Positions 10,230 to 60,950 of a DNA stretch of 64,000 nt are shown here, piece after piece. Origin of the DNA: an uncultured Acidobacteriota bacterium (GTDB lineage: Bacteria > Acidobacteriota > Vicinamibacteria > Vicinamibacterales > CAVVIG01). The notes below the pieces were generated by a model that was given only the letters and a program-made list of their open reading frames with translations, was not told the DNA's origin and did no database searches. A program made the position numbers and the translations under genes. The number at the start of each line of letters is the position of its first letter. Position 1 is the stretch's first letter. The stretch lies in NCBI GenBank assembly GCA_963780685.1, contig CAWACZ010000017.1:320563-384562 (forward strand), in the 5' to 3' direction.

Positions 10230-10264
10230 CTCCGCGAGACCGGAGTCCCTCCGAAATGCCGTGC
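10230..10264. promoter_or_regulatory. tandem palindrome element, copy 1 (candidate bEBP enhancer site)
   Basis: CTCCGCGAGACCGGAG tcc CTCCGAAATGCCGTGC. Lies in the divergent intergenic region between the STAS-like and DUF4136 genes. Confidence 0.4.
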
Positions 10265-10327
10265 GGCACCCCGGACCTCTCTCGAGATTGCGCCGCCATC
10301 GGCGGGAGCGATCCGCAGGCCCTCGTG

Positions 10328-10343
10328 CGGCGTGACAATTGCA
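10328..10343 (+). promoter_or_regulatory. candidate sigma-54 -24/-12 promoter
   Basis: CGGCGTGACAATTGCA. GG (10329-30) and GC (10341-42) have GG-N10-GC spacing and the -12 TTGCA is perfect. 65 bp downstream of copy 1 and 52 nt upstream of the ATG at 10395. Confidence 0.35.
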
Positions 10344-10394
10344 CCACCGCTCTTGATCCGAGGTCAAGGCCGTCACCCGAAAGGAAAGGTAGAT

Positions 10395-10940
10395 ATGCAG
10401 AAGAAACTCCTGATTGTTATTGCACTTGTGCTAGCGCCGGCTCTGCTCGTTGCGCAGAAGGTTTCCTACGACTTCGAGAAAGCTGCAAACTTTGCGGCTT
10501 TCAAGACTTATGCGCACAAGGACGGGACCAAAGTCGGGCAATCCCTGATCGACGATCGTATCGTCGCCGCCATCGAGACGGAGCTTAGCGCCAAGGGCTT
10601 CACGAAGTCGGAATCGAGTCCCGACGTGTTCGTCGTCTACCACGTGGCCTTCGACAAAGAGAAGGACATCTCGTCGTACAGCTCCGGCTATGCCGGCGGA
10701 TACGGTGCGTATGGCTGGGGTTGGGGCGGGGGTATGGGTACGACGACGACACAGGTGCGGGACATTCTGATCGGCACACTCGTGATCGACATGGCCGACG
10801 CGAAGAAGGGGCAGCTGGCCTGGCGCGGGATGGGAGTCAAGGAAGTCGACACGCAGGCCAAACCCGAAAAACGCGATAAGAGCATCAACAACGCGGTGAA
10901 GAAGATTTTCAAGAATTACCCGCCGAAGGTGAAGACGTAG
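10395..10940 (+). CDS. DUF4136-like secreted protein or lipoprotein
   Basis: Trimmed from ORF 9891..10940 to the ATG at 10395 (GGAAAGG upstream). Signal peptide MQKKLLIVIALVLAPALLVAQ. VSYDFEKAANFAAFKTYAH and PDVFVVYHV are typical of DUF4136. Confidence 0.65.
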   Translation: MQKKLLIVIALVLAPALLVAQKVSYDFEKAANFAAFKTYAHKDGTKVGQSLIDDRIVAAIETELSAKGFTKSESSPDVFVVYHVAFDKEKDISSYSSGYAGGYGAYGWGWGGGMGTTTTQVRDILIGTLVIDMADAKKGQLAWRGMGVKEVDTQAKPEKRDKSINNAVKKIFKNYPPKVKT

Positions 10941-11003
10941 GTCGAACGCCAGCCTGAGGGCTTGGAAGGGAAAGCCGAGGCCGCACGCCCGGAGACCGAA
11001 GCC

Positions 11004-12659
11004 TTATGGGAGCTTCGGCCGCGACAGCCCCAGTTTGGCCATACGCGTCTCGAGGGTGGTGGGCCTGAGCCCGAGTCGGTCTGCCGCCCCACCCGATCCG
11101 CGAATGCGCCAGCAAGTGCTCTCCAGGACGCTGCGGATATGCTCTTTCTCGACGTCCGTCAGCTTGACGCTGCGTTTTCCAGCAACAGGCGAGGGCGTCG
11201 GTACGGCAATGGTCAGCCGAGTGCCGGTCGTGACGATCATGGCGCGCTCCACGACATTGCGCAGCTCGCGAATGTTGCCTGGCCATGAATACGCTTGCAG
11301 CGCGGCCATACTCTCCCTGGGGATGGCCTCGATCCGTTTGCCGAACGCATTCGAGAATGCTTCGACGAAGCGCCACACGAGAATGGGGATGTCTTCGACG
11401 CGATCCCGTAGCGGAGGCACCATGATGGGGAAGACATTGAGCCGGTAGAACAAGTCCTCGCGAAACGCTCCGTCGGCGATCCGTTGCTCCAGATTCCGGT
11501 GCGTGGCCGCAATGATTCGCGTGTCCACGCGAATACTTTTTGGGCTGCCGAGCCTCTCGATTTGGCGCTCCTCGAGCACGCGTAGTAACTTGACCTGGGT
11601 TTCGACTGGCAGATCGCCGACCTCGTCGAGGAAGATGCTCGAGTGGTCCGCCAGCTCGAATCGTCCCACCTGACGGGCGAGGGCGCCTGTAAACGCGCCC
11701 TTCTCCCGGCCGAACAACTCGCTCTCCATGAGCGTGGAAGGAATCGCGGAGCAGTTCACGCGCACCATCGTGCGCCCGCGCCTCGCGCTCAGCTCATGGA
11801 TCTGCGCGGCAAAGAGCTCCTTGCCGGTTCCGGTCTCACCAAGCAGCAGCACCGTCGAGTCGGTGGCCGCCACCTGCTGCACCTGTTCCAGGACTCGGCG
11901 GACGGCTGCGGTCTCTCCGACGATGTTGCCGGTGCCAAGACGATCCTGGGCTTCGCGCCGGAGGTACAGGTTCTCGGCCCGCAACTGGTCGCGCAACCGT
12001 TCCACTTCCGCGAGCGTGTTTTGGAGCGCTTCGTCGCCTTGCCGGCGTGCCAGAACGTTCCCGAAGGCCGTGGCGAACACCCGAAGGCGATGCACCTCCT
12101 CCGGACGCCACGTGCGTTCCCGGCGCACCATGTTGAAGCCGACCGCGCCCACCACCCGGCCGTCAACGGACAGAGGCACCGTCACGGAGGACCTTGTGCC
12201 GAACGACTCGCACGCGGCGCGGTCGATTGGGTTCGGAATGTCATCGACCCTCGAGAAGCTCACCACGCCACCGGCGAGCAGGGTCTCGAGCGCCCACGGA
12301 AAGCGCTCCCTGGCCGAAGTCGGCGCCGCGACCGGCGCGATGCCAGGACTCTCCCAGCTCACCGGGGCCACCAGCATGCCGTCCGGCTGAATCCTGAAAA
12401 AAATACAGCCGTCGAGACCCAGGGCTTCGCCAATCTGTCGAAGGGCCGCTCGAATCGCTCCGTCGACCTGGTCGACGGGCAGGTTGATGAACTGCACCGA
12501 CAACTCGGCGACGACCCGCTCGAGCTCCAGTTGCCCCTGCAATCTGAGGTGGTTTGTCTCTTCGAGGTTGGGGAAGGACTCGGCAAGACGATGCAAGTGC
12601 TGGCGATCGAGCGCGATCTGACCAAATCGAGTCGCGGGCGATTCGGCTAACTCAGGCAT
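11004..12659 (-). CDS. sigma-54-dependent Fis-family transcriptional activator with GAF-like sensor domain
   Basis: N-terminal ~230 aa GAF-like region, [30 protein letters not shown] and WPGNIRELRNV. C-terminal HTH GGAADRLGLRPTTLETRMAKLGL. Confidence 0.9.
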   Translation of the reverse strand: MPELAESPATRFGQIALDRQHLHRLAESFPNLEETNHLRLQGQLELERVVAELSVQFINLPVDQVDGAIRAALRQIGEALGLDGCIFFRIQPDGMLVAPVSWESPGIAPVAAPTSARERFPWALETLLAGGVVSFSRVDDIPNPIDRAACESFGTRSSVTVPLSVDGRVVGAVGFNMVRRERTWRPEEVHRLRVFATAFGNVLARRQGDEALQNTLAEVERLRDQLRAENLYLRREAQDRLGTGNIVGETAAVRRVLEQVQQVAATDSTVLLLGETGTGKELFAAQIHELSARRGRTMVRVNCSAIPSTLMESELFGREKGAFTGALARQVGRFELADHSSIFLDEVGDLPVETQVKLLRVLEERQIERLGSPKSIRVDTRIIAATHRNLEQRIADGAFREDLFYRLNVFPIMVPPLRDRVEDIPILVWRFVEAFSNAFGKRIEAIPRESMAALQAYSWPGNIRELRNVVERAMIVTTGTRLTIAVPTPSPVAGKRSVKLTDVEKEHIRSVLESTCWRIRGSGGAADRLGLRPTTLETRMAKLGLSRPKLP

Positions 12660-12782
12660 ATTTCAAGAAGTTGTACATCATGGTCTTGCCCGTCGTGATC
12701 AACCCCTGAGACTAGAGACTTATCCGCCGAATCAGCTATGCAGATTCGGCAGAACAAGGTTGGAGTGGCGTGGTTCGAACTG

Positions 12783-12817
12783 CTCCGGCATCCCGGAGTA
12801 GGTCCGCCATATCGGAG
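12783..12817. promoter_or_regulatory. tandem palindrome element, copy 2 (candidate bEBP enhancer site)
   Basis: CTCCGGCATCCCGGAG tag GTCCGCCATATCGGAG. The first 16-mer has perfect palindromic arms. Lies between the GAF-bEBP gene and the DUF3302 operon. Confidence 0.45.
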
Positions 12818-12907
12818 GCTAGGGCCGAAAGTCGAATAGCAACCCGTCGTCGGGTGTAGCCTCGGCACGTCATTGATTTAGAGTCGCGACAACGCTCGAC
12901 ACCGCCA

Positions 12908-12923
12908 TGGCATGGCGAGTGCT
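12908..12923 (+). promoter_or_regulatory. candidate sigma-54 -24/-12 promoter of the DUF3302-HlyD-OMF operon
   Basis: TGGCATGGCGAGTGCT. GG 12909-10 and GC 12921-22 (GG-N10-GC). Compare consensus TGGCACG-N4-TTGCW. 92 bp downstream of copy 2 and ~78 nt upstream of the start at 13001. Confidence 0.5.
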
Positions 12924-13000
12924 GTAGATCGAACTCCAATCATCGGGCGAAAGTGCTTCGGTCTGCGACCACCGTTCCTTGTTTCAGACACGATTAGGAT

Positions 13001-13570
13001 ATGGCTATGGCTCCAGAGCACTCGATCAGTAGAGAACGGTGGACGAGGCGCAAGACCCTTCGTCTGATTGCAGGCACGTTGACGTTCGGCGTGTTTCTGT
13101 CGTTACCACCGCAGGCGCATGCTTCGTTGCTCTCGCACGAGGCTGAGGACAAGCTGGCCAGTATTCTCGCCCTCGTCGTGATCTTCCTAGTCCCGATCGT
13201 GCTCATCGTCTTGTTCTGGATGGTGCATATCCTCCCCGAGAAGATCGCCCACAAGCGGCACCATCCGCAGTTCGAGGCCATACGGACGTTGTGCCTGCTG
13301 TCCCTGGTGTTTGGGGGCCTTCTCTGGCCGTTGGCCTGGCTGTGGGCGTATTCGAAGCCGGTCATGTACAAGATGGCGTACGGGACGGACAAGCATCCGG
13401 ATGCGCTTGCAGATGAAGAACATGCGCTCGACCAGAACGTGGGGACAGCCGATCTCGTCGACCGATTGGCGCGGCTCGAGAAGCGGGGTGTTCCGACGTC
13501 TGAATTGACAACCCTTCGCGCCGATCTCGAGGCGCTCGAGGCAAGGTTCGCAGACGAAGAGGCACGTTAG
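13001..13570 (+). CDS. DUF3302-family inner-membrane protein (YiaW-like)
   Basis: LALVVIFLVPIVLIVLFWMVHILPEKIAHKRHHPQFEAIRTLCLLSLVFGGLLWPLAWLWAY matches the DUF3302 pattern. Sits immediately upstream of a HlyD gene, as in yiaW-yiaV. Confidence 0.7.
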   Translation: MAMAPEHSISRERWTRRKTLRLIAGTLTFGVFLSLPPQAHASLLSHEAEDKLASILALVVIFLVPIVLIVLFWMVHILPEKIAHKRHHPQFEAIRTLCLLSLVFGGLLWPLAWLWAYSKPVMYKMAYGTDKHPDALADEEHALDQNVGTADLVDRLARLEKRGVPTSELTTLRADLEALEARFADEEAR

Positions 13571-14845
13571 ATGGAGATTATCCTCCTCGGAATTTATTCG
13601 TTTTTCGTGTGGTTGATCTTCATCAAGCTGAAGTTATTGCCCTGGACGACGCCCTGGAAGGTGGCCGTCGCGATCTTCCCGGTGGTGGCGATTGTAGTGA
13701 TGCTCCTGCTTTTGAACATCTTCGCGCCCACGACGAGCGACGTCAGGGTCGTCAATTATGTCGTGCCCGTCGTGTCGCAAGTCAGGGGGCGCGTGATCGA
13801 AGTCCCGGTGGAAAACAACCGCCCGGTGAAGAAAGGCGATGTGCTGTTCCGAATCGATCCGACGCCCTACGCCAACGAGGTCAATTCGCTCGCAGCGAAG
13901 CTGGTGTCGGACGAAGCGAAAGTCGGGGCCGATCGCCAGCGACTCAATGAAGTACAGGCGCGATTGGCGGACGCACAATCGAGTGAGCGGCAGCTCCATG
14001 AACAGTTGAACCAAGCCACCGGCCAGGTGGAGTCCCTGTCGGCATCGCTCGACTTGGCCCGGAAACGGGTCGAGCAGAACACCGAGCTCGTCGCCGCGGG
14101 GGCCGGCAATCGCTTCGATCTGGATCAAGCACAGACGAAGGTCAACGAGTTGACAGCGCAAATGGCTGCAGCCCGCGCGGCCGAGCAACAGGTCAGAGAA
14201 AAGCTGTCAGGCCGTGTCAACGGCGACCTCGCGACCGTAGCGGAGGTGAAGGCGCAAATTGCCACGGCCCGGGCGCAGGTGCAGGTCTCCGAGGCCCAGG
14301 TCGACACGACCCGCGCCCAACTCGAGAACGCCCGATGGGACCTGTCGCAGACGACACTCGTCGCCCCGGGCAACGGCACGATGGTGAACGTGATGCTCCG
14401 CCCCGGCTTCTTCGTGGCCGGCGTGCCGTTCAACGAGGTCATGACGTTCGTCGACGAGGAGTATCAGATCTTCGCGTTGTTCGGGCAGAACGAGCTGCAC
14501 CAGGTCGTGCCGGGGAACGAGGCCGAGATCACGCTCGAGACCTACCCGGGACGCGTCATCAAGGCCCATGTGGATTCAATCATCTGGGCTCAGGGACAGG
14601 GGCAGGTCGAGGCCTCGGGCGACCTGCCGCGGACGACCTTTGTCCCGCCGCCCGGCCGGTTTCCAGTCAAGCTCGTGGTCGGCGAGCACGATCGCAAGCT
14701 GTTTCTGGCTGCAGGCGCCCGCGGATCTGCCGCCATCTATACGGATTACCTCTCCCTGATTCACATTATTCGAAAAGTACTCCTGCGGGTGGCGTCGTAT
14801 CTGGACTACGTCATCATCAAGCACAGCATCAGCTTGGGCCACTGA
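13571..14845 (+). CDS. HlyD-family membrane fusion protein
   Basis: N-terminal TM, lipoyl-like motif (VKKGDVLFRIDP), a long coiled-coil and a beta-barrel C-terminus. ATG follows the upstream TAG directly. Confidence 0.85.
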   Translation: MEIILLGIYSFFVWLIFIKLKLLPWTTPWKVAVAIFPVVAIVVMLLLLNIFAPTTSDVRVVNYVVPVVSQVRGRVIEVPVENNRPVKKGDVLFRIDPTPYANEVNSLAAKLVSDEAKVGADRQRLNEVQARLADAQSSERQLHEQLNQATGQVESLSASLDLARKRVEQNTELVAAGAGNRFDLDQAQTKVNELTAQMAAARAAEQQVREKLSGRVNGDLATVAEVKAQIATARAQVQVSEAQVDTTRAQLENARWDLSQTTLVAPGNGTMVNVMLRPGFFVAGVPFNEVMTFVDEEYQIFALFGQNELHQVVPGNEAEITLETYPGRVIKAHVDSIIWAQGQGQVEASGDLPRTTFVPPPGRFPVKLVVGEHDRKLFLAAGARGSAAIYTDYLSLIHIIRKVLLRVASYLDYVIIKHSISLGH

Positions 14846-16353
14846 TGGATCGCGTGATGCCCGATCAGTCGGTTCACCGCCATCGTTCGCAGACGGCTCG
14901 GGGGCTTGGGGGCTTCGTCGCTCCGCTCGTGGCCGCCTTCGTACTCGTGATGACGGCGTCGTGCATCCTGAAGAAGCCACCGAACGCGACTGCCATCAAA
15001 GAACAGGCGTTGCCAACCGTGGAGCTGCCTGCGCAGTGGACGGCGGCTGGCGCGGGTGCAGGCCCTGTGACCAACAACTGGATCGTCACGTTCCGCGACG
15101 ACCAGCTGCTTGCCGCCGTCGTCGAGGCCATCGCCTACAACGCCGACCTGCGTGTAGCCGCTGCGCGTGTCGAGCAGGCGCAGCTCTATGCCAAACTCGC
15201 CGGAGCGAAGCTCTACCCGTCGGTCGATTTCCTGGCCCGTGGAGGCGGCGAGATGTCGGGCGACAACTCCGGCCTGCAGGGGGCGGCGCTCACGGTGACA
15301 TGGGAGGTCGATCTTTGGGGTCGGGTGAGATACGGCCGCGCGGCTGCTGCTGCCGATGCAGCCTCAGCCGGGGCCGACTTCGAGTACGCGCGTCAGTCGA
15401 TTGCCGCGCTCGTGGCCAAGAGCTGGTTCCTGACTACCGAAGCGGCGTTGCAGGCCAACGTGGCGCGCGAGACCATTCGAGACGGCGACGAGCTGGTTCG
15501 CCTCGCTCAAACACGATCGCAAGTGGGCGTCGGCAGCGATGAGGACGTTTTCGTGGCCCGTGGCACGGTCGGGAGTTACCGCGACAGCTTGCGCCAGGTC
15601 GAACAGGCACGTGAACAGGCGATTCGGGCACTGGAGCTCCTGCTTGGCCGATATCCGGCGGCCGCAGCGAGCGTCAGGGCGGAGCTGCCGGGCCAGCCTG
15701 AGGCGGTGCCAGCGGGCCTCCCGTCCGAGCTCCTCGAGCGCCGACCGGATGTGGTCGCTGCCGAACGGCGCATCGCGGCAGCGTTCAACCGCGTCGGCGA
15801 GGCGAAGGCCGCCCGTCTCCCAGCGATCGCGCTGACGACCGGCGTCAACAGCATCTCGAGCGAACTCTTCGTGCTCCAGGATCGCGAAAACCCCGCCTGG
15901 AACTTTGGCGCGAATCTGCTCGCGCCTGTCTTCAGAGGAGGGGCGCTCAGAACGCAGGTCGAGATTCGGACCGCCGAGCAGAAACAGGCTATCGCCGCGT
16001 ACGCGGTTGTCGGCCTGCGTGCGTTCGGCGAGGTCGAGAACGCCCTCGCGGCGGAGATTGCGGCGCGCGAGCGCGAGCAGATCCTCGGCCAAACGCTCTC
16101 CGACTTTCAGCGCGCGCTCGAGATCGTTCAGACCCAATATCGGGTCGGGACCACCGATCTGCGGTTCGTGACACAGCGGCAACTGGCGCTGAACGCCGCG
16201 CAGGCCGCTCTCATCCGTGTCCAGGCTGAACAGCGCGTACAGCGGGTCAACCTGCATTTGGCGCTGGGAGGCAGCTTCGAGCCGCGCCCGACCACCCAGC
16301 CCGCCCAACCAGGGTCGACTCCGGTCGACCCTACCGCGACCCCTTCCCGGTAG
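14845..16353 (+). CDS. outer-membrane efflux lipoprotein (NodT/OMF family)
   Basis: Start set at ATG 14845, overlapping the HlyD stop (ATGA). Lipobox-like LVMTASC. Two OEP repeats with a typical coiled-coil pattern. The listed ORF 14335..16353 N-terminus overlaps the HlyD gene and is not credible. Confidence 0.8.
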   Translation: MDRVMPDQSVHRHRSQTARGLGGFVAPLVAAFVLVMTASCILKKPPNATAIKEQALPTVELPAQWTAAGAGAGPVTNNWIVTFRDDQLLAAVVEAIAYNADLRVAAARVEQAQLYAKLAGAKLYPSVDFLARGGGEMSGDNSGLQGAALTVTWEVDLWGRVRYGRAAAAADAASAGADFEYARQSIAALVAKSWFLTTEAALQANVARETIRDGDELVRLAQTRSQVGVGSDEDVFVARGTVGSYRDSLRQVEQAREQAIRALELLLGRYPAAAASVRAELPGQPEAVPAGLPSELLERRPDVVAAERRIAAAFNRVGEAKAARLPAIALTTGVNSISSELFVLQDRENPAWNFGANLLAPVFRGGALRTQVEIRTAEQKQAIAAYAVVGLRAFGEVENALAAEIAAREREQILGQTLSDFQRALEIVQTQYRVGTTDLRFVTQRQLALNAAQAALIRVQAEQRVQRVNLHLALGGSFEPRPTTQPAQPGSTPVDPTATPSR

Positions 16354-16530
16354 TACTTCTGCGGGCTGCTCCGAACGTCGGTGCCACGAGGCTGACCGTT
16401 TATCGAGTCGTGAGCGCGTCGGCGGATGGCGTGGCAGGCCTGCGCGTGAGCCACTGTTTCATCGCAGGAAACAGCCGGAGAGCGACAATCTGCTGCCTTC
16501 GTTCGCGGCTTCGTCGTTAAGCGGTTGTAA

Positions 16531-16565
16531 CCCCGGAATCCCGGAGTTCATCCGACATGCCGGAC
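16531..16565. promoter_or_regulatory. tandem palindrome element, copy 3
   Basis: CCCCGGAATCCCGGAG ttc ATCCGACATGCCGGAC. Lies inside a 570-nt non-coding gap. Confidence 0.4.
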
Positions 16566-16662
16566 GACCGGCAGAGTGCGTTCTATCCCTCCGGATGAGA
16601 TTACCGCCGTCAAAAATCGAGCATAGAAGAGGTTAGCCCCCTTGCAGACTGACTCCGCCAGA

Positions 16663-16678
16663 TGGCAACCGCCGTGCA
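16663..16678 (+). promoter_or_regulatory. candidate sigma-54 -24/-12 promoter
   Basis: TGGCAACCGCCGTGCA. GG 16664-65 and GC 16676-77. 99 bp downstream of copy 3 and ~250 nt upstream of the ATG at 16926. Confidence 0.45.
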
Positions 16679-16925
16679 CTCCGCACGTCGCCGGGCGATG
16701 CTCCCTACAGGCACGTTCCACGAAGCACTGAACGTGAGTCTCGAGGTGATCCTCGGGTTTGGCCGAATCCGTGAAGAGTTGCCATGAGTCGGCGAGTGCG
16801 AAAGGTTCTGCTCTTTATAGTGAATGAAGAATAGAAGGAGAGCGCCAGTCATGAACATTGTCAAGTCGGTCACCCTCGTCGCACGCAGACCTGGAAACGT
16901 TTCGCATTCAGGCAGAGGAGGCTTC

Positions 16926-17477: not shown

Positions 17478-17493
17478 ACGTGCGGGCGTTTTT
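17476..17493 (+). terminator. weak intrinsic-terminator-like hairpin
   Basis: AAACG-tgcggg-CGTTT followed by a T run. Overlaps the TAA stop of the upstream gene. Confidence 0.25.
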
Positions 17494-17592
17494 ACCACTT
17501 CGTGCCTGGTTCTTTTTTGATGCTGAGTGCGAATCGCTTCACTAGCATCGGACGCGAACCAGGTACGAGGTACGACACAGGGGGTCCTGAAC

Positions 17593-21888: not shown

Positions 21889-21905
21889 GAGCAAGGCACG
21901 TACCC
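21889..21905 (-). promoter_or_regulatory. candidate sigma-54 -24/-12 promoter of the DUF3300-DUF2950 pair
   Basis: Minus strand reads GGGTACGTGCCTTGCTC (GG-N10-GC, perfect TTGCT). Shares an identical 16-mer with 60935..60950. About 100 bp from palindrome copy 4 and ~58 nt upstream of the start at 21821. Confidence 0.45.
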
Positions 21906-22002: not shown

Positions 22003-22038
22003 CTCTCCCCGGCCGGAGTTTCCTCCGAATTGCCGGAT
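22003..22038. promoter_or_regulatory. tandem palindrome element, copy 4 (most degenerate, 4-nt spacer)
   Basis: CTCTCCCCGGCCGGAG tttc CTCCGAATTGCCGGAT. Confidence 0.3.
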
Positions 22039-23446: not shown

Positions 23447-23455
23447 GGGGTCTCC

Positions 23456-48924: not shown

Positions 48925-49101
48925 GGGCTCGGCAAGTGCACCAGTCGTTCCAATCGTTCCGGGGGTTCGTGAGCGGCTCTTAGTGCCATCAAATGAACAC
49001 CTTGACCCCAATAACCTGATCGCCTGAAGGCCAGCGCAGCGGGATTCGACCCCCGGCATCGCAGAGGCTGCACGGCATGCCGGAGGCGGGAAGAGCGCGG
49101 T

Positions 49102-51054
49102 CTAGGCGTGGCCCGGACGCCTGAGCCCGAGCTTCGCCAGGCGCGTCTCGAGTGTGGTGGGCTTCAGCCCGAGGCGTTCGGCCGCCCCTCCGCGTCCCCG
49201 GATTCGCCAGCCTGTGCTTTCCAGAACGTCGCGAATGTGTTCCGTCTCCACATCGACCAGTTTCGAGCTGCGCCTGGCCGCGGCCGCTGATGGCAGCGGC
49301 ACCGCGATTGTCAGTCGCTTGTGCGTCGACCCGATCATCGCGCGTTCCACGACATTGCGGAGCTCGCGGATGTTGCCAGGCCAGGGATACCGCTGCAAGG
49401 CTGCGAGGCTGTCCTTGTCGATCGATTCGATCCGCTTGCCGAATGCTTTGGAGAACTCGTCCACGAAGTGCCAGACCAGCAGCGGGATGTCCTCTACGCG
49501 TTCCCGCAACGGTGGTATGTGAATCGGGAACACGCTCAGTCGGTAATAGAGATCCTCTCGGAACAGCCCCTCCGAAATCCGCTGTTCCAGATTGCGATGC
49601 GTCGCTGCGACGATTCGCGTGTCCACCGTAATCGGCCGCGGGCTTCCCAGCCGCTCGATCTGTCGCTCCTCGAGCACGCGCAGCAGCTTCACCTGGACGT
49701 CGGGTGGCAGATCGCCCACTTCATCGAGAAAGATCGTCGAATGATTGGCCAGCTCGAATCGGCCCACCTGTTGCGATAACGCTCCAGTGAATGCGCCTTT
49801 CTCTCGTCCGAACAGCTCGCTTTCGATGAGCGTCGCGGGGATCGCCGCACAGTTCACTCGCACCATCGCCCGGCCGTGCCGCGCTCCAAGCTCGTGGATC
49901 TGCGTCGCGAACAACTCCTTGCCCGTGCCGGTCTCCCCAAGCAGCAGGACCGTCGAGTCGGTCGCAGCCACTTGCTCTATCTGCTCGAGCACCCGGTGGA
50001 CGGCTTCGCTCCTCCCCACGACGCGCGTCAAGCCCAACCGCTCGCGCGCTTCCCGCCGCAGGGACACGTTTTCCACCTGCAGTTCGTCCTTGAGGCGCCG
50101 CGCTTCCACCGTTGCTGCCCGAATGACCTGGTCCCGCAGCTGCCGCGCCAGGACCTGGCCGAACACACTCGCGATCACTCTGAGCCGGTGTACCGCTTCT
50201 GGCAGCCACGGCCGCTCCGTGTGGATGGCGTCGAAGCTCAGGACGCCTGCCACGCGACCGTCAACCAACAGAGGGATGGCCACTGCCGCCTTGATCTGGA
50301 GCGCCCGGCAGGCGTCGCGGTCGATCTCATTCGGAATCTCGGCGAGGGTCGAAAACAACGCCATCTCGCCCGTGACGATGCGGTCGATCGCCCACGGGAA
50401 GCGCGTCTTCAACGGCACAGGGGCGTCCAGCGGTTGAATTTCAGGCGCCGTCCAACTCACGGGATCGACCAGCACGCCATCCGGCCCGAGCCGGTAGAAC
50501 GTGCTCCGATCGAGACCGAGCTTTTCGCAGGTCCGGCGCAGCCCGCTGCGAATCGCCTCGTTGACCTGGCCGGCTGGAAGGTTGATGAACTGGCTCGATA
50601 ACTCGGCAACGACGCGCTCGAAGTCGAGCTGCTCCGCGAGCGTTGCGCGCTGCGCCTCTTCCGACCTGCGGCGCTCGGCAATGTTCACGATGGACGCGAG
50701 CACGAAGAGGCCATCCCTCGTGGGAATCGGATTCAGCCCGATCTCGACCGGAATCTGGGAGCCGTCTTTACGGCGTCCGAAAAGCTCACGACCGGCGCCC
50801 ATTTGCCGCGACTCTGGCATGCGCGCAAAGGCTTGCCGATGCACTGCGTGAGCGTGGCGCTGTGCCTCGGGTACCAAGACATCCACTGTCTGGCCGACGA
50901 GCTCCTCGCGCGCATAGCCGAACTGTCGTTCCAGCTCGCGATTGACGAGCACAATCGTCCCGTGCGGGTCCACCACCAGGATGCTGTTCGGCGACGCCTC
51001 GATTGCGAGCTCAAACGTTTCCGCCAAATCGAGGCCGGAATCGGCCACTTTCAT
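49102..51054 (-). CDS. sigma-54-dependent Fis-family activator with PAS and GAF-like sensor domains
   Basis: PAS (SPNSILVVDPHGTIVLVNRELERQFGY), GAF-like region, [21 protein letters not shown] and WPGNIRELRNV. HTH GGAAERLGLKPTTLETRLAKLGL. Clear paralogue of 11004..12659. Confidence 0.9.
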   Translation of the reverse strand: MKVADSGLDLAETFELAIEASPNSILVVDPHGTIVLVNRELERQFGYAREELVGQTVDVLVPEAQRHAHAVHRQAFARMPESRQMGAGRELFGRRKDGSQIPVEIGLNPIPTRDGLFVLASIVNIAERRRSEEAQRATLAEQLDFERVVAELSSQFINLPAGQVNEAIRSGLRRTCEKLGLDRSTFYRLGPDGVLVDPVSWTAPEIQPLDAPVPLKTRFPWAIDRIVTGEMALFSTLAEIPNEIDRDACRALQIKAAVAIPLLVDGRVAGVLSFDAIHTERPWLPEAVHRLRVIASVFGQVLARQLRDQVIRAATVEARRLKDELQVENVSLRREARERLGLTRVVGRSEAVHRVLEQIEQVAATDSTVLLLGETGTGKELFATQIHELGARHGRAMVRVNCAAIPATLIESELFGREKGAFTGALSQQVGRFELANHSTIFLDEVGDLPPDVQVKLLRVLEERQIERLGSPRPITVDTRIVAATHRNLEQRISEGLFREDLYYRLSVFPIHIPPLRERVEDIPLLVWHFVDEFSKAFGKRIESIDKDSLAALQRYPWPGNIRELRNVVERAMIGSTHKRLTIAVPLPSAAAARRSSKLVDVETEHIRDVLESTGWRIRGRGGAAERLGLKPTTLETRLAKLGLRRPGHA

Positions 51055-51691: not shown

Positions 51692-51708
51692 GTGCAGCAG
51701 ATGTACCG
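51692..51708 (-). promoter_or_regulatory. candidate sigma-54 -24/-12 promoter
   Basis: Minus strand reads CGGTACATCTGCTGCAC (GG-N10-GC). 87 bp from palindrome copy 5 and ~38 nt upstream of the Met at 51644. Confidence 0.35.
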
Positions 51709-51793: not shown

Positions 51794-51828
51794 CTCCGGC
51801 ATCGCGGAGACCCTCCGGAATGCCGGAG
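51794..51828. promoter_or_regulatory. tandem palindrome element, copy 5 (best-conserved copy)
   Basis: CTCCGGCATCGCGGAG acc CTCCGGAATGCCGGAG. Lies in the divergent region between the bEBP operon and the atp operon. Confidence 0.45.
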
Positions 51829-51924: not shown

Positions 51925-51940
51925 TGGCATGCGCCGTGCT
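51925..51940 (+). promoter_or_regulatory. candidate sigma-54-like -24/-12 element in front of atpB
   Basis: TGGCATGCGCCGTGCT (GG 51926-27, GC 51938-39). Closely resembles the elements at 12908 and 16663. 98 bp from copy 5. Overlaps the alternative GTG start (51924) of the listed atpB ORF. Confidence 0.3.
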
Positions 51941-53775: not shown

Positions 53776-53778
53776 GCC

Positions 53779-54171: not shown

Positions 54172-54257
54172 TTGCAGCGGGTGCACGCGTCCGGCATCGA
54201 AACGCGCGACGCGACCATCGAGTGAGCGCGCGGTGGGTGAGTTGCGCGTTCGTTGGC

Positions 54258-54321
54258 GTAGCGCAGGCCTTTCAGGGCTGCTTGTCCGTCGGGCGCCGGC
54301 AGGCCTAAAGGCCTGCGCTAC
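54258..54321. repeat. REP-like structured palindromic element, copy 2
   Basis: GTAGCGC-[GCAGGCC tttca GGGCTGC]-linker-[GCAGGCC taaa GGCCTGC]-GCGCTAC. Lies in the atpH-atpA spacer. Confidence 0.85.
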
Positions 54322-54386
54322 GTTAAGCGGGCGGCTACATAAGCGGGCGGCGTCAACGAAGGCCTCCCGGGATTAGGTAGGAACAC

Positions 54387-55922
54387 ATGGCCGACCTGGT
54401 GCAGGAAATAGAAGCCCAAATCGCCGGAGCGAAGGCCGCGACCGCCAAGCAGTCCGTGGGCCTCATTCGCGAGATTGGCGATGGCGTCGCCCGAGTCGAG
54501 GGCCTTGGTGACGTGATGCTCAACGAGATGCTCGACTTCGGGCACGGCATCACAGGCCTGGCCCTGAATCTCGACGAGACCGAGGTCGGCGTGATCATTC
54601 TGGGCGACTACACACAGCTCGAGGAGGGCGGGGAAGTCCGAGGGACCGGAAAACTCCTCCAGGTGCCCGTCGGCAAGGGCCTGCTGGGTCGTGTCGTCAA
54701 TACGCTCGGTGAGCCTCTCGATGGCAAAGGTCCCATCGCCAGCAGCGTCGCCTATCCGGTCGAAAAGCTCGCCCCCGGGATCATCCGGCGGCGCCCGATC
54801 GGGCAGCCGGTTCAGACGGGCATCATGCCGATCGACGCCATGATCCCGATCGGCCGCGGGCAGCGGGAGCTCATCATCGGCGACCGTTCCACGGGCAAGA
54901 CGACGATCTGCATCGACACGATCCTCAGTCAGGCTCGTCTAAATCAGGCGGCCGAAGCGGCCGGCGACACGAGCTATCGACCGCTCTATTCCATCTACGT
55001 GGCGATCGGCCAGAAGCAGTCCACGATCGCTCAGATCATCACGATTTTGGAAGAAGCGGGGGCGATGCCCTACAGCATCATCGTCGCATCGCCTGCGGCG
55101 GATTCCGCGACCAGTCAGTACCTGGCGCCGTTTGCCGGTGCGGCGATGGGCGAGTGGTTCATGGACAACGGCATGGACGCGCTGATCGTGTACGACGACT
55201 TGTCCAAGCACGCCGTCGCCTACCGTCAGGTGTCTCTCGTCTTGAAACGGCCGTCGGGTCGGGAAGCCTACCCAGGAGACGTGTTCTACCTGCACAGCCG
55301 GCTGCTCGAGCGAGCCGCGCGCGTCGGCGAACAATACGGCAATGGTTCCCTCACGGCGCTGCCGATCATTGAGACACAGTCCGGAGACGTATCCGCGTAC
55401 ATCCCCACCAATGTCATTTCGATCACGGACGGACAGATCTTCCTGGAAACCGACCTGTTCTACCAGGGGATCCGCCCCGCCATCTCGGTTGGCATCTCGG
55501 TGTCTCGTGTGGGATCGGCAGCACAGCTCAAGGCCATGAAGCAGGTCGCCGGACAGCTCAAAGGTGATCTCGCGCAGTTTCGGGAGCTGGCGGCGTTTGC
55601 ACAGTTTGGATCCGAGCTGGATGCCGCAACACAGGCGAAGATCGACCGTGGCAAGCGCATTGTCGAACTCTTCAAGCAGTCCCAGTACAGTCCGGTTCCG
55701 GTCGAGGTCCAGGTCGGGGTGATCTGGGCGGTTCAAAACGGGTACGTGGATGATGTGCCGGTCGAACGCATCAAGGAATTCCAAGCCAGCTGGACCGACT
55801 TCCTGATTACGCGTAAGGCCAGCGTGCTGGAGAAAATCGTAGCGGAGAAAGCGCTGAGTGAGCCATTGACGGCGGAGTTGAAGAGCGCTGCCGATCAATT
55901 CAAACAGACGTGGAAGAAATAG
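54387..55922 (+). CDS. atpA: F0F1 ATP synthase subunit alpha
   Basis: [10 protein letters not shown]-loop and a typical alpha-subunit sequence throughout. 511 aa. Confidence 0.95.
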
Positions 55923-56053
55923 TTCTCAGCTGTCAGCTCTCAGCTGCCAGTGGAAGCAACAAGACGGTCGAAGGCCAAGAACTGAAAAGCTGACCGTTTG
56001 ATAGCTGAGAGCTGAAAACTGAGGGAGCCGACAGCTGACAGCTGAAAACTGAT
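55923..56053. repeat. heptamer-based spacer: (YTNYCAG)x4, then (CTGRRRR) units running up to the atpG ATG
   Basis: TTCTCAG CTGTCAG CTCTCAG CTGCCAG at 55923-55950. CTGAGAG CTGAAAA CTGAGGG ... CTGACAG CTGAAAA CTGAT-ATG at 56005-56056. The two blocks are partly complementary (for example AGCTCTCAGCT / AGCTGAGAGCT). Confidence 0.85.
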
Positions 56054-56921
56054 ATGAACTCCCCCCGCGATCTTCGCAGACGCATCAAGTCCATCAGCGG
56101 CACGGCGCAAATCACCAAAGCCATGCAGATGGTGGCGGCGTCGAAGATGCGCAAGGCTCAGCAGGCCGCTATCGCCACCGCGCCATTTGCGCGGCTGTTG
56201 TACCGCATCCAGCGCCGCGCGACCACACGGGTACGCGACTTCTCGCATCCGCTGATGCAGGTGCGCGACGTCCGCACGCGCGCGGTGATCCTGATCGCGG
56301 CCGACAAGGGTCTCTGCGGGGCGCTCAACACCAACGTCTTCCGCATCGCCGCACAGTTCGATCCCGAATCGACGATCTTCATCACCGCCGGGCGCAAGGC
56401 CGCGCAGTTCGTCGCCCGCACGCGGCGGCGGCTGGCCGCCGAATTCGCCTACGGCGATTCGCCGACGTTTCCCGAGGCCAGAGCGATTGCCGGCTTCGCG
56501 GGCGACCTCTTCCTGAAGGGAGAGGTGGACCAGGTGCAGATCGTCACCACGCGTTTCGTGAACACCCTCACACAAGAGCCCGTCTCGATGGAGTTTCTGC
56601 CAGTGGGGACGATCGCTGGGATGAAGGTCGTCTGGAGCGGAATCCGAGGAGACCTTGGCTGCTGACACGGCGGAGACGGTGTTCGAACCCAGCGCTGAGG
56701 CGGTTCTGGGGTATATGGTCGGGCGCTATCTGAACATTTACATCTACTACATCTTGCTGAGTGCCAAGGCCAGCGAGCAGAGCGCTCGCATGGTGTCGAT
56801 GAAGAACGCGACCGACAGCGCCGAAAGCCTGATCAAGGACTTGACGCTCGAGTACAACAAGCTGCGTCAGGGCAACATCACGAGGGAATTGCTGGAGATT
56901 GCAGGCGGCCAGGCGGACTGA
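56054..56921 (+). CDS. atpG: F0F1 ATP synthase subunit gamma, frameshifted as assembled
   Basis: N-terminus RRRIKSISGTAQITKAMQMVAASKMRKAQ and C-terminus ARMVSMKNATDSAESLIKDLTLEYNKLRQGNITRELLEI lie in different frames (listed ORFs 56054..56665 and 56655..56921). The shift is near 56628-56634. Confidence 0.9.
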
Positions 56922-56945
56922 GAGCTGAGGGCTGAGGGCTGAGGA
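56918..56945. repeat. heptamer array (CTGAGRG)x4 incorporating the atpG TGA stop
   Basis: CTGAGAG CTGAGGG CTGAGGG CTGAGGA, read directly. Confidence 0.9.
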
Positions 56946-56959
56946 TGGTATGAGTGTGT

Positions 56960-57044
56960 GAAGAAATCGCTGTAGCGCAGGCCTTTCAGGCCTGCTTTGT
57001 CGGGCAGCCCTAAAGGGGCTGCGCTACATCAGTGCGATTTCTTC
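56960..57044. repeat. REP-like element copy 3, flanked by 11-bp inverted repeats (MITE-like unit)
   Basis: GAAGAAATCGC (56960-70) ... GTAGCGC-[GCAGGCC tttca GGCCTGC]-linker-[GCAGCCC taaag GGGCTGC]-GCGCTAC (56972-57027) ... GCGATTTCTTC (57034-44). Confidence 0.85.
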
Positions 57045-57064
57045 TGAGAGCTGAGAGCTGAGGA
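57044..57064. repeat. heptamer array (CTGAGAG/CTGAGGA)x3 just upstream of the atpD ATG
   Basis: CTGAGAG CTGAGAG CTGAGGA, then cgtt-ATG. The last unit provides a GAGGA SD. Confidence 0.9.
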
Positions 57065-57068
57065 CGTT

Positions 57069-58470
<1,402 letters not shown>

Positions 58471-58544
58471 CTGATACTGAAAACTGATAGCTGAAAACTG
58501 ATAGCTGGTAGCTGGAAGCTGGAAGCTGGAAGCTGGTAGCTGAT
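58471..58544. repeat. heptamer array (CTGRWAG)n, ~10 units filling the whole atpD-atpC spacer
   Basis: CTGATAC TGAAAA CTGATAG CTGAAAA CTGATAG CTGGTAG CTGGAAG x3 CTGGTAG CTGAT-ATG. Confidence 0.9.
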
Positions 58545-58955
58545 ATGGCCGAGACCCTCAAGCTGGAAATCGTGACGCCGGAGGCAACGGTCTTCTCCGA
58601 AGACGTGAACCTGGTCACCTTGCCGGGCGTCGAGGGGCAGTTCGGCGTGTATCCTCGGCACGTCCGACTGATTACTCAAGTGGTGCCCGGTGAGATCATC
58701 GTGCTCAAAGACGGCCAGGAGAGATTGCTCGCCGTCGGTGAAGGGCTCGTGGAGATTGACAGCGATCATGTGGCGATCGTGACCGATATGGCCGTTCCCG
58801 CGGAGAAGGTCGACGAGGCCAAGGCCGAAGAGGCGCGCGCACGCGCTGAGGCGCGGCTTGGCGAGAAGATCTCCGACGAGGAAGTGGCGTCCGTCAACGC
58901 GTCGCTCGCCCGATCCCTGGCGCTGCTGCAGGTGAAGCGGCGTCGACGGATGTGA
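58545..58955 (+). CDS. atpC: F0F1 ATP synthase subunit epsilon
   Basis: 136 aa. LKLEIVTPEATVFSEDVNLVTLPGVEGQFGVYPRH is a typical epsilon N-terminal beta-sandwich, followed by a helical C-terminus. Confidence 0.9.
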   Translation: MAETLKLEIVTPEATVFSEDVNLVTLPGVEGQFGVYPRHVRLITQVVPGEIIVLKDGQERLLAVGEGLVEIDSDHVAIVTDMAVPAEKVDEAKAEEARARAEARLGEKISDEEVASVNASLARSLALLQVKRRRRM

Positions 58956-59060
58956 AACGACAGAGCTCACGAGCCGGCAGGCGTCTCGACAGGTGCATAG
59001 GAATCCACTCCAGCTCTTGCTTCGCTGCCGCTGGCGACGCGCAGCGGGATTCCGCCAACA

Positions 59061-60743
59061 ATGGAAAGAGACCGCACTCCTCTCGCAACGAGGGCAGACG
59101 ACCACCCAGGCTCGCCGGCAGTGCGGCTCGACGTGATCTCAGGCCTCGTGGCGGCGGCGGTTGTGCTGCCCAAGGCCATGGCGTATGCGAGTGTGGCCGG
59201 TCTGCCCGTGGCGGTGGGACTCTACACCGCCTTCGTCCCGATGGTGATCTACGCGCTGCTCGGCTCGTCGCGCGTGCTCAGCGTCAGCTCCACCACCACC
59301 CTGGCGATCCTGACGGGCACGCAACTCGGTCTGGTAGTCCCCGACGGCGATCCGGCGAAGCTCGTCACGGCGACCGCTACGCTCACCGCACTGGTCGGCG
59401 CGCTGCTGATGCTGGCGCGGCTCCTGCGTCTGGGATTCGTCGCCAGCTTCATCTCCACGCCGGTGCTGACGGGTTTCAAGGCGGGCATCGGCCTCGTGAT
59501 CGTTCTCGACCAGGTGCCGAAGCTCCTTGGAATCCACATCACCAAGGAGGGCTTCTTCCGCGACCTGTTCGATGTCGTGCAACACATTCCCGACACGTCG
59601 CTGGTCACGCTGGGCGTAGCCGCGGCGACCTTCGCGATCTTGATCGGCCTGGAGCGACTGCGGCCGCATTCGCCGGCGCCGCTGGTCGCCGTGGGGGGCG
59701 CCATTGCCGCGTCGTGGTACTTCGGCCTGCAGGCACTCGGCGTCTCGACGGTCGGCGTGATACCGCGAGGTTTGCCGGCATTCACGATACCTGACCTCTC
59801 CCTGATCGAACGATTGCTGCCGGGCGCTCTCGGGATCGCGCTCATGAGCTTTACCGAAAGCATTGCGGCCGGCCGCGCCTTCGCGCGCCCGGCCGACCCG
59901 CCGATCCGTGCGAACCGCGAGCTGGTCGCCACCGGCGCGGCCAATCTGGGTGGCGCACTGCTCGGTGCGATGCCGGCCGGCGGCGGCACCTCGCAGACCG
60001 CCGTCGTGCGCTCCTCGGGTGGGCAGTCGCAAAGGGCCTCGCTGGTGACCGCGGCCATCGCGGTCGCCACGATGCTGCTCCTCGCACCGATGCTCGGCCT
60101 CATGCCGAACGCGACGCTCGCGGCGGTGGTGATCGTCTACTCGGTCGGGCTGATCCAGCCGGCAGAGTTCCACGCCATCCGCAAGGTGCGCTCGATGGAG
60201 TTTCGCTGGGCGCTTTTCGCCTGTGCCGGCGTGCTGCTGTTCGGCACGCTCAAGGGGATCGTCATCGCGATCGTCGCGTCGATGATCGGCCTGGCCGGCC
60301 AGACTGCGCACCCGCGAGTGTCGGTCATCGGGCGTAAGCGCGGGGCCAACGTGCTGCGACCGCTGTCGCCCGACCATCCCGACGACGAGACCTTCGAAGG
60401 CCTGCTGATCGTGCGGCCGGAAGGGCGCCTGTACTTCGTGAACGTTCAGGACGTCGGCGATCAGATCGGCGCACTGGTCGCCAAATACCAGCCACGCGTG
60501 CTGGCGCTGGACATGAGCCGTGTACCCGATCTCGAATACTCGGCCTTGCAGATGCTGATCGAGCGTGAGCAACGCGCGACCGACAGGGGCGCCGTGCTCT
60601 GGCTGGTGGGGCTGAACCCGGCCGTCCTCGATACGGTGCGGCATTCCGAGCTGGAGGGGCGGCTCGGCCGCGAGCGCATGCTTTTCAACGCACGTGAGGC
60701 GATTCAGCGTTACGAGGCCATGCAGGCAGCCTCCGTGTCCTGA
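59061..60743 (+). CDS. SulP-family anion transporter with C-terminal STAS domain
   Basis: Sulfate_transp core (GLVAAAVVLPKAMAYASVAGLPVAVGLYTAFVPMVIYALLGSSR). C-terminal STAS (LLIVRPEGRLYFVNV...LDMSRVPDLEYSALQML). Confidence 0.85.
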   Translation: MERDRTPLATRADDHPGSPAVRLDVISGLVAAAVVLPKAMAYASVAGLPVAVGLYTAFVPMVIYALLGSSRVLSVSSTTTLAILTGTQLGLVVPDGDPAKLVTATATLTALVGALLMLARLLRLGFVASFISTPVLTGFKAGIGLVIVLDQVPKLLGIHITKEGFFRDLFDVVQHIPDTSLVTLGVAAATFAILIGLERLRPHSPAPLVAVGGAIAASWYFGLQALGVSTVGVIPRGLPAFTIPDLSLIERLLPGALGIALMSFTESIAAGRAFARPADPPIRANRELVATGAANLGGALLGAMPAGGGTSQTAVVRSSGGQSQRASLVTAAIAVATMLLLAPMLGLMPNATLAAVVIVYSVGLIQPAEFHAIRKVRSMEFRWALFACAGVLLFGTLKGIVIAIVASMIGLAGQTAHPRVSVIGRKRGANVLRPLSPDHPDDETFEGLLIVRPEGRLYFVNVQDVGDQIGALVAKYQPRVLALDMSRVPDLEYSALQMLIEREQRATDRGAVLWLVGLNPAVLDTVRHSELEGRLGRERMLFNAREAIQRYEAMQAASVS

Positions 60744-60797
60744 ACTGGCTGTTTCGGTGGCACGAGCCTCGGTGGCTCAGGCGGGCCGTTCGCAGGC

Positions 60798-60832
60798 CTC
60801 CGGGATTCGGGAGCCCCTCCGGTCCCGCGGAG
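60798..60832. promoter_or_regulatory. tandem palindrome element, copy 6
   Basis: CTCCGGGATTCGGGAG ccc CTCCGGTCCCGCGGAG. Lies in the 340-nt gap upstream of pta. Confidence 0.4.
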
Positions 60833-60934
60833 TGCCTTCTAGGGCGCGGCCACACCTGACACGGGCGTGCATATCGGTCAAACCCTTAGAATTCTGATAG
60901 TTCGGTGGTGTCCGTCCGTGTGCGGCGCGGTCAG

Positions 60935-60950
60935 AGGTACGTGCCTTGCT
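60935..60950 (+). promoter_or_regulatory. candidate sigma-54 -24/-12 promoter of pta-ackA-pflB
   Basis: AGGTACGTGCCTTGCT (GG 60936-37, GC 60948-49). The 16-mer GGTACGTGCCTTGCTC is identical to the minus-strand element at 21889..21905. 104 bp downstream of copy 6. An IHF-like TCAA-N4-TTA lies at ~60876-60888. Confidence 0.45.

Follow-up and report, generated by a model that had tools for sequence, protein, structure and literature searches.

A conserved tandem palindrome as the probable enhancer of a predicted sigma-54 regulon in soil Acidobacteriota

We analyzed a 64,000-nt stretch of contig CAWACZ010000017.1 (positions 320,563 to 384,562; hereafter the window) from an uncultured bacterium of the Vicinamibacterales (Acidobacteriota), in which a tandem palindrome, CTCCGGnATnCCGGAG-N3-CTCCGGnATnCCGGAG, recurs between genes at a restricted distance from sigma-54-type promoter boxes. 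Sigma-54 promoters have an invariant GG-N10-GC spacing (consensus TGGCACG-N4-TTGCW) and have as their activators bacterial enhancer-binding proteins (bEBPs) bound to dyad-symmetric sites roughly 80-150 bp upstream. The tandem element is very probably the upstream activating sequence (UAS), or enhancer, of a sigma-54 regulon and the predicted site of bEBPs with PAS/GAF-AAA+-HTH_8 architecture. We observe an excess of the motif over chance, an oriented and phased relation to the boxes, conservation at orthologous loci, and co-occurrence with one DNA-binding domain across phyla. Together with a lack of selection for hairpin formation, these observations argue for the enhancer and regulon that a preliminary description of this DNA had proposed. 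From the same sequence evidence we infer that these bEBPs bind the element and that all of the paralogues share it.

There are seven tandem copies in the window (E1 to E7; Table 1), all of them intergenic. The preliminary description counted six, and the 35 or 36 nt of each read letter for letter as it quoted them, at the coordinates it gave; it overlooked E7, situated past the second bEBP gene's stop codon and before the gene that comes next. We compared pairs of 16-mers with CTCCGGN4CCGGAG, allowing spacers of 2-5 nt, and used 200 dinucleotide-preserving shuffles of the window (63% G+C) as a control. Six tandems have five or fewer total mismatches, against a shuffle mean of 0.13 (maximum 2), and four have four or fewer, against a mean of 0.005. 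Single 16-mers with at most one mismatch are likewise in excess: eight in the window and 0.68 in the shuffles.

A frequency matrix built from 42 instances, none of them chosen by exact pattern, has as its consensus CTCCGGnATnCCGGAG, two variable bases, a weak C, and then CTCCGgnATnyCGGAG. In most copies, the middle two bases read AT; each unit is thus a complete 16-bp palindrome, and the four middle positions, which the preliminary description had treated as free, include a conserved pair. Half-site centers are ~10 bp apart and unit centers 19 bp apart. The arms and the central AT, common to all copies, hold the motif's information content, and the variation between copies is found at positions 7 and 10 and in the spacer. 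No third palindrome, of the kind that makes up the three NorR sites, is present at ±19 bp, where the mean mismatch is at background level. Several genes of the window are split between frames: atpG (56054-56921), atpD (57069-58470), the transaldolase/PGI gene (37862-40680), the third bEBP gene (5736-7110), and probably ackA (62079-63249). This suggests indel errors of a long-read assembly rather than true pseudogenes, and errors may likewise underlie single-base details, the 4-nt spacer of E4 for one.

Both strands of the window were scanned with a −24/−12 weight matrix. Eight boxes score at least 12 bits, and seven of the eight lie 109-121 bp from an element (measured from the element center to the GG) and point outward from it. 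In all, nine boxes accompany the seven elements: seven score 12.0-14.0 bits, and the secondary two lie at 82 and 104 bp. For every box a plausible start codon follows 3-238 nt past the predicted start site. The six GG-N10-GC boxes of the preliminary description, the one before pta among them, are present exactly where it placed them. The weaker boxes that it named at E1 and E5 are found again at orthologous loci elsewhere, which makes both loci look bidirectional; it missed the stronger boxes on the opposite sides, which are predicted to drive the STAS and F1Fo ATP synthase operons.

To follow the arrangement into other genomes, we collected further loci, numbered here with an L. Five contigs (L001-L005) encode homologues 73-76% identical to bEBP1 and share a gene neighborhood in which a bEBP gene is divergent from DUF3302-HlyD-OEP and DUF4136 is divergent from a SpoIIAA-like gene and a gene for a protein of ~800 aa; a second bEBP gene follows, and then ABM-PPK2-DUF3300-DUF2950. 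The orthologous intergenic regions carry the tandem element with an outward box at 103-120 bp, the box toward DUF4136 lying at ~80 bp. Orthologues of E1 are found between DUF4136 and the SpoIIAA-like gene in L001, L002, and L003, those of E2 between the bEBP gene and DUF3302 in L001-L005, and those of E7 upstream of ABM genes in L001 (1461) and L002 (629 and 21193). The box type of CGGCACGCTCCCTGCT, next to the SpoIIAA-like gene, is kept in L001-L003, L027, L044, and others, and the box CGGCTCGACAATTGCA lies ~82 bp upstream of DUF4136 in at least 15 other genomes. Four DUF3300 loci (L021, L034, L095, and L108) have an element with a spacer of 3, and there too the promoter-proximal unit is without the central AT. 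Element and box precede a homologue of the 664-aa protein of the window in L007 and pta in L064. L050 shows an arrangement like that of E5 at ATP synthase, together with a homologue of the secreted protein whose box, TGGTACACGGGCTGCA, lies at 104 bp.

For a wider survey we took one genome per species, 185,579 in all, searched them for TCCG-N6-CGGAG-N3-CTCCG-N6-CGGA, an exact pattern that occurs at at least 119 loci, and recorded outward boxes of at least 10 bits at 50-135 bp. Among the matches listed, boxes accompany 46 of 58 elements in Acidobacteriota (15 of the 46 on both sides), 14 of 20 in Alphaproteobacteria (mostly Bradyrhizobium/Xanthobacteraceae), 3 of 22 in other taxa, and none of 19 in Actinobacteria, where the matches listed are long perfect hairpins. 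The box density of the window leads us to expect ~0.02 such boxes per element. Around the listed Acidobacteriota elements there are 60 outward boxes of at least 10 bits at 50-119 bp, compared with six in the rest of the 0-400 bp range, and only four inward boxes over the whole range. The distances of 121 distinct elements from other genomes fall into the classes 59-60, 68-71, 78-83, 92-93, 100-106, 109-121, and 131-132 bp. They show a periodicity of ~11.5 bp (Rayleigh R = 0.545), a statistic that non-independent orthologous sites inflate, to the cost of the argument, and that we therefore take as suggestive and not as a probability. A face-of-helix constraint on the distance between element and box is suggested. 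The fixed-distance co-occurrence anticipated by the preliminary description was thus found both in the window and at these 121 elements.

Among the matches listed, the conserved targets are DUF4136 (15 genomes), ABM (11), the SpoIIAA-like gene (9), DUF3302 (8), DUF3300 (5), the bEBP gene itself (3), atpB (2), and pta (2). The ABM cluster has at least 11 members at ~116 bp, Bradyrhizobium among them. Conservation in related genomes, also anticipated, therefore extends to the orthologous DUF4136, SpoIIAA-like, DUF3302-HlyD-OEP, DUF3300-DUF2950, ABM, atpB, and pta genes, each with element and box. Elsewhere, element and box also precede genes for carbonic anhydrase, glyoxalase-fold proteins, DUF1269, DUF481, outer-membrane barrels, and bEBPs (Arg-rich, wrong-frame first ORFs downstream of boxes were removed ahead of this Pfam scan), and, by reading of ORF sequences rather than Pfam, genes for glutaminase, glycogen phosphorylase, and PEP carboxykinase.

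One contig of Bradyrhizobium sp. LY.8 (NZ_SSMW01000135.1, 8-40 kb; L020, L053, L067, and L096) has at least four near-perfect CTCCGAAATTTCGGAG x2 elements in 32 kb, most of them with a TGGCCCGCTTCTTGCG-type box at 114-117 bp; the neighboring genes encode DUF2092, NMT1-like, and ABM proteins and a PAS histidine kinase. By its sequence, this region makes up a tightly packed regulon island, and the genus is open to genetic work. The CTCCGAAATTTCGGAG x2 element is also carried by B. rifense CTAW71 (L036).

The two intact activators of the window, bEBP1 and bEBP2, are 67% identical, and both carry Pfam Sigma54_activat and HTH_8 domains and the GAFTGA motif. The preliminary description had named these two, with correct strings for their helix-turn-helix (HTH) segments; to them we add a frameshifted paralogue, bEBP3. 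Homologues of bEBP1 number in the thousands and include one from Vicinamibacterales (Acidobacteriota); most are PAS-GAF-AAA+-HTH_8 proteins of ~650 aa, and a contig may encode several paralogues. The predicted recognition helix, PTTLETRMAKLG, is invariant across phyla in the activators that accompany the element. Of 122 family members, which are 70-95% identical overall, 115 have the signature W-R-I-R-G-x-G-G-A-A-x-R-L-G-L-x-P-T-T-L-E-T-R-[ML]-A-K-L-G, and PTTLETR and KLG are invariant among those 115, bEBP1 and bEBP2 included. In Terriglobia, Ignavibacteriales, and Bradyrhizobium/Xanthobacteraceae, this DNA-binding signature is encoded no more than 8 kb from elements, often adjoining the element; at L045, the coding sequence of a GAF-AAA+-HTH_8 protein ends 3 bp from it.

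Compared with a 95%-identical orthologue of 656 aa (P0001), bEBP1 lacks precisely the PAS domain (aa 32-135) and stays in frame, the two proteins matching over the first 31 aa and over residues 136-655. Loss of the N-terminal sensor often renders bEBPs constitutively active, and bEBP1 could therefore be a naturally deregulated variant. Beside the frameshifted bEBP3 gene, an ORF at 3728-5059(+) encodes an N-terminal OmpR/PhoB-type winged helix (Trans_reg_C) followed by an AAA_16 ATPase; from its domains, it is classed as a large regulator of SARP/AfsR- or LuxR-like type.

In the mechanism that we propose, each 16-bp palindrome would be the site for one dimer of a bEBP, three paralogues of which are encoded in the window. 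The spacing of 19 bp between centers would set two dimers side by side and so nucleate the active AAA+ ring, which would meet sigma-54 RNA polymerase in the closed complex at the −24/−12 promoter, the intervening 60-100 bp being looped. Allowed distances would step by ~11.5 bp. Since the site is symmetric, one element could serve divergent promoters.

Table 1. Tandem elements, sigma-54-type boxes, and activator genes of the window (distances run from element center to GG; the genes given for a box are those it is predicted to drive)
Feature	Coordinates	Strand	Sequence	Description
E1	10230..10264			5 mismatches, spacer 3; between STAS operon and DUF4136, apparently bidirectional
E2	12783..12817			3 mismatches
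E3	16531..16565			4 mismatches
E4	22003..22038			Weakest of the six copies first described, spacer 4
E5	51794..51828			Best copy, 1 mismatch; apparently bidirectional
E6	60798..60832			2 mismatches
E7	49051..49085		CCCCGGCATCGCAGAG gct GCACGGCATGCCGGAG	6 mismatches, spacer 3
Box	10119..10134	-	CGGCACGCTCCCTGCT	12.1 bits, 114 bp from E1; SpoIIAA-like 9720-10100(-), 852-aa ORF 7291-9849(-)
Box	10328..10343	+	CGGCGTGACAATTGCA	9.7 bits, 82 bp from E1; DUF4136 10395-10940(+) (Pfam)
Box	12908..12923	+	TGGCATGGCGAGTGCT	14.0 bits, 109 bp from E2; DUF3302 13001-13570, HlyD 13571-14845, OEP (to 16353) (Pfam)
Box	16663..16678	+	TGGCAACCGCCGTGCA	12.4 bits, 116 bp from E3; secreted protein 16926-17477, 664-aa protein 17527-19521
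Box	21890..21905	-	GGGTACGTGCCTTGCT	12.0 bits, 116 bp from E4; DUF3300 20619-21821(-), DUF2950 19622-20605(-) (Pfam)
Box	48937..48952	-	TGGAACGACTGGTGCA	12.6 bits, 117 bp from E7; ABM-like 48607-48924(-), PPK2 47769-48542(-), possibly co-directional carbohydrate genes beyond
Box	51693..51708	-	CGGTACATCTGCTGCA	8.5 bits, 104 bp from E5; secreted protein 51069-51644(-), then bEBP2
Box	51925..51940	+	TGGCATGCGCCGTGCT	14.0 bits, 115 bp from E5; F1Fo ATP synthase operon 51963-58955
Box	60935..60950	+	AGGTACGTGCCTTGCT	12.8 bits, 121 bp from E6; pta 61087-62028, ackA (to 63249), pflB (63274 onwards)
bEBP1	11004..12659	-	GGAADRLGLRPTTLETRMAKLGL (HTH)	GAF-AAA+(GAFTGA)-HTH_8 by Pfam
bEBP2	49102..51054	-		FixL-like PAS, GAF, AAA+(GAFTGA), HTH_8 by Pfam
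bEBP3	5736..6821	+		AAA+ core by Pfam, frameshifted; HTH in another frame (three-frame translation, tblastn), helix slightly different

The shared use of one element could be questioned on the ground that each paralogue may serve its own copies, told apart by positions 7 and 10, the 3-nt spacer, and the flanks, so that there would be several small regulons and not one. The copies do differ at positions 7 and 10 and in the spacer, every bEBP gene adjoins its own element, and the helix of bEBP3 is somewhat different. However, the predicted recognition-helix residues are those found identical in 115 of the 122 homologues, including bEBP1 and bEBP2, and the information in the motif is confined to parts that all copies have in common. 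We regard separate regulons as unlikely, and favor a common element, given an invariant recognition helix alongside divergent sensor domains.

It is less likely still, and in our view quite improbable, that the element is the site of some other protein acting at these sigma-54 promoters (a global repressor, a co-activator, or a nucleoid-associated protein) and that the bEBPs bind elsewhere. The Acidobacteriota elements without a recognizable box (12 of the 58 listed) would fit such a protein. Against it, dyad symmetry and a center ~83-145 bp upstream of the predicted start are traits of a bEBP UAS, the element accompanies this HTH_8 domain in four phyla and often abuts the bEBP gene, and the invariance of the recognition helix parallels that of the CTCCG arm. 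No other recurrent upstream motif was noticed, although no de novo motif search was run.

There remains the view of the palindromes as a structural repeat selected for its hairpin (a sequence like the repetitive extragenic palindromes (REPs), a transcript-stabilizing stem-loop, or a 3′-end terminator), with the nearby boxes incidental. A 6-bp stem closed by a loop of 4 nt is possible in each unit, the stop codons of co-directional or convergent genes come just before E3, E4, and E6, and the hairpins of Actinobacteria show that the pattern can arise in that way. Departures from the palindrome, however, are one-sided in 96 cases, two-sided and compensatory in only five, and two-sided but non-complementary in 15, and positions 7 and 10 are complementary in merely 15 of 64 units; the mostly one-sided deviations indicate that base identity, and not pairing, is under selection. 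The CTCCG arm is kept from Acidobacteriota to Alphaproteobacteria, and the fixed, oriented, and phased box distance is lacking in the Actinobacteria hairpins (none of the 19 matches listed). We found no terminator-like site at any element within 9800-22200 and no T-run after any copy. With one-sided deviations, no terminator features, and no T-run, the hairpin and terminator reading is rejected as having next to no probability, and the generic REP hairpin that the preliminary description held up against its own proposal is contradicted, since pairing is not maintained and a distance relation to the boxes is present.

Several further points weigh against the enhancer reading itself. As noted above, no box of at least 10 bits is found at 12 of the 58 listed Acidobacteriota elements. 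The weight matrix behind all box scores is an approximation of the published TGGCACG-N4-TTGCW consensus; with it, the E. coli hyc and hyp promoters, known from experiment and used as a positive control, score 15.4 and 17.2 bits, respectively. A tblastn search with E. coli RpoN found no rpoN in the window and ~1 Mb of loci from many genomes, a coverage at which the result is uninformative; the presence of rpoN is indicated indirectly, by the three bEBP genes and the conservation of the boxes. The strict IHF consensus WATCARN4TTR occurs in only two of 74 spacers between element and box. In the spacers of the window and of 70 other loci we also see AT-rich patches, up to 76% A+T against a baseline of ~35%, at ~29, 40, and 51 nt upstream of the box, in an ~11-bp phase; these patches may reflect intrinsic bending or a degenerate IHF/HU site.

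As to the signal, residues 18-110 of bEBP2 match the heme PAS domain of RmFixL (1d06) at E = 9e-17 in a search of PDB sequences, and the DosP heme PAS was also matched. The RHAH of bEBP2 aligns with RHEH(194), which holds the proximal His, and its GAGR with Arg220 of BjFixL. From this FixL-like PAS and from the targets pta-ackA-pflB, F1Fo ATP synthase, and ABM-PPK2 with downstream phosphoketolase and glycogen-related genes, we infer O2 or redox state as the input. This is opposed by the low frequency of His in the proximal-His column (40-45 of 94 PAS-bearing paralogues, ~45%) and by the absence of the PAS domain from bEBP1, so O2 cannot be the sole signal. In addition, the regulon consists mostly of envelope proteins of unknown function and offers no specific pointer to anoxia. 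The paralogues appear to differ in sensing and to share one DNA specificity.

The predicted targets are compatible with an anoxia or energy-stress program that also remodels the envelope through DUF4136, DUF3300/DUF2950, and DUF3302-HlyD-OEP; other predicted envelope or efflux-type targets in the window are the secreted proteins and the STAS gene with its 852-aa protein. We can go further only tentatively, to a proposal that we think would more probably fail than hold: that sensor-divergent, FixL-like heme-PAS/GAF sigma-54 activators, several paralogues per genome with one recognition helix, converge on 2 x CTCCGGnATnCCGGAG and integrate O2, redox, and other cues. They might then run a DosR-like, sigma-54-dependent survival regulon for anoxia and energy stress, from soil Acidobacteriota (Vicinamibacteria) to Bradyrhizobium, that would comprise acetate and formate fermentation, a dedicated F1Fo ATP synthase, the use of polyphosphate and glycogen, and envelope remodeling.

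Among the predicted target genes of the window, the SpoIIAA-like gene was assigned by Pfam, as were pta, ackA, and pflB (PTA_PTB, Acetate_kinase, and PFL-like, respectively). In the F1Fo operon, Pfam identifies subunits a, b, delta, alpha, gamma, beta, and epsilon, in canonical order, with a c-subunit gene presumed between a and b. Some of the predicted transcripts are leaderless or nearly so: the ATG lies past the predicted +1 by 3 nt for ABM (48924), 9 nt for the STAS (SpoIIAA-like) gene (10100), and 13 nt for atpB (51963). For ABM, the distance of 27 nt from GG to ATG is kept in L001 (1594-1621) and L002 (761-788). The DUF3300 and pta boxes have an identical 16-mer, GGTACGTGCCTTGCTC, with T for the usual C at −22 (GGTAC), a variant that is also present at 51707(-) and in L050.

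The promoter at E7 is followed by ~16.8 kb of co-directional genes with short gaps (32126-48924(-)): ABM, PPK2, phosphoglucomutase, histidine phosphatase, phosphoketolase, transketolase, RpiB-transaldolase-PGI, GH94 phosphorylase, and glucoamylase. This run may be one long sigma-54-driven operon, although a gap of 162 bp after PPK2 leaves doubt. The sole box of at least 12 bits without an element (TGGCGATGGCGTTGCA, 33910-33925(-)) lies inside the GH94 gene, in its 3′ part, with the glucoamylase gene ~480 bp downstream, and is probably a chance or intragenic site. Weaker elements were sought upstream of the other boxes of the window, including this one and those at 28205(+) before pyruvate kinase and 30525(+) before LDH, and none was found; pyruvate kinase, LDH, and the like are therefore not counted as members of the regulon. 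At 22079-27130(-) there is a cluster encoding an MtrB/PioB-type outer-membrane porin, an MtrA/MtrC-like multiheme cytochrome, a NapC/NirT-like cytochrome, and a cytochrome c, which suggests extracellular electron transfer; upstream of it we found neither an element nor a sigma-54 box.

A literature search returned no prior description of the CTCCGGnATnCCGGAG motif or of the regulator clade, the matches to the motif string being unrelated primers. Vicinamibacteria abound in soil, but hardly any genetic work has been done on them, and next to nothing is known of how they regulate their genes. The element provides a DNA motif that can be scanned for and a predicted regulon of more than 12 gene families, many of whose members are of unknown function (DUF4136, DUF3300/DUF2950, DUF3302, the SpoIIAA-like protein with its ~800-aa partner, and ABM). 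By tying these DUF families to fermentation genes and ATP synthase, the regulon would give them a first functional context, and it hints at how nominally aerobic soil Acidobacteriota might meet anoxic episodes. Since the element and the DNA-binding domain are also present in genetically tractable Bradyrhizobium, the prediction is directly testable there. Sensor-divergent paralogues at one enhancer could also offer a useful model of how signals are integrated at sigma-54 promoters.

Among known systems, E. coli FhlA is alike in being a GAF-containing one-component bEBP, with 46-50% identity over AAA+-HTH, a comparable HTH context (GAAQRLGLKRTTLLSRMKRLGI versus GAADRLGLRPTTLETRMAKLGL), and, by way of pflB in the present case, a tie to formate and fermentation. 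It differs in its recognition-helix residues, and hydrogenase or fdhF targets are missing here. In BLASTP of bEBP1 and bEBP2 against FhlA, only residues 296-691 (the end of GAF, AAA+, and HTH) align, and the N-terminal ~300 residues have no significant match. The best tandem match in the hycA-hypA UAS region of E. coli has 11 mismatches out of 24, and GTCGAC/TGTCG-type repeats are found there instead. On the non-homologous sensor region and the dissimilar UAS, we reject the orthology to FhlA that the automated name "formate hydrogenlyase transcriptional activator" implies.

The half-site of Myxococcus xanthus Nla28, an NtrC-type response regulator, is CT[C/G]CG[C/G]AG and occurs as 8-bp direct repeats whose spacing varies around a mean of 25 bp (PMC9765219). 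The Nla28 sites resemble the present element in being G+C-rich, in starting with CTCCG and ending with GAG, in their tandem arrangement upstream of sigma-54 promoters, and in the autoregulation of EBP genes. Unlike them, the element consists of 16-bp palindromes with a fixed 3-nt spacer, and the resemblance, judged from the sites, is superficial.

Paralogous bEBPs at common promoters are reported for RedR1/RedR2 (PMC10084136) and in the interplay of VnfA and AnfA (PMC9542535). As in these pairs and in HrpR/HrpS, closely related bEBPs occur side by side here and could share enhancers, possibly as mixed oligomers. In contrast, we find at least three paralogues per locus, divergent PAS sensors, and a broad predicted regulon that spans metabolism and envelope. 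With FixL/FixJ and DosS/DosT-DosR, the system has in common a FixL-like PAS domain, in which the proximal His and the distal Arg align, and targets that suit anoxic life (fermentation, ATP synthase, and polyphosphate kinase 2). It is unlike them in that the predicted sensor is fused to a sigma-54 activator, without a kinase or response regulator, and in that the His is missing in half of the paralogues.

The architecture as a whole is the textbook bEBP-UAS-sigma-54 design; the motif and the regulon are undescribed. As with NtrC at glnAp2 and in the designs of DctD, ZraR, PspF, and XylR (Bush & Dixon 2012, cited in PMC13207237), and of NorR, there are paired adjacent dyad sites for a domain of the HTH_8/Fis type, a GG-N10-GC promoter roughly 80-150 bp downstream of them, a GAFTGA AAA+ activator, and an apparent dependence on the face of the helix. 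Unlike NtrC, the regulator here is a one-component PAS/GAF sensor and not a response regulator. The less common traits are the very tight packing of the two sites (19 bp between centers), the several sensor-divergent paralogues with one recognition helix per locus, and the frequent bidirectional use, seen at 15 of the 58 Acidobacteriota elements among the matches listed.

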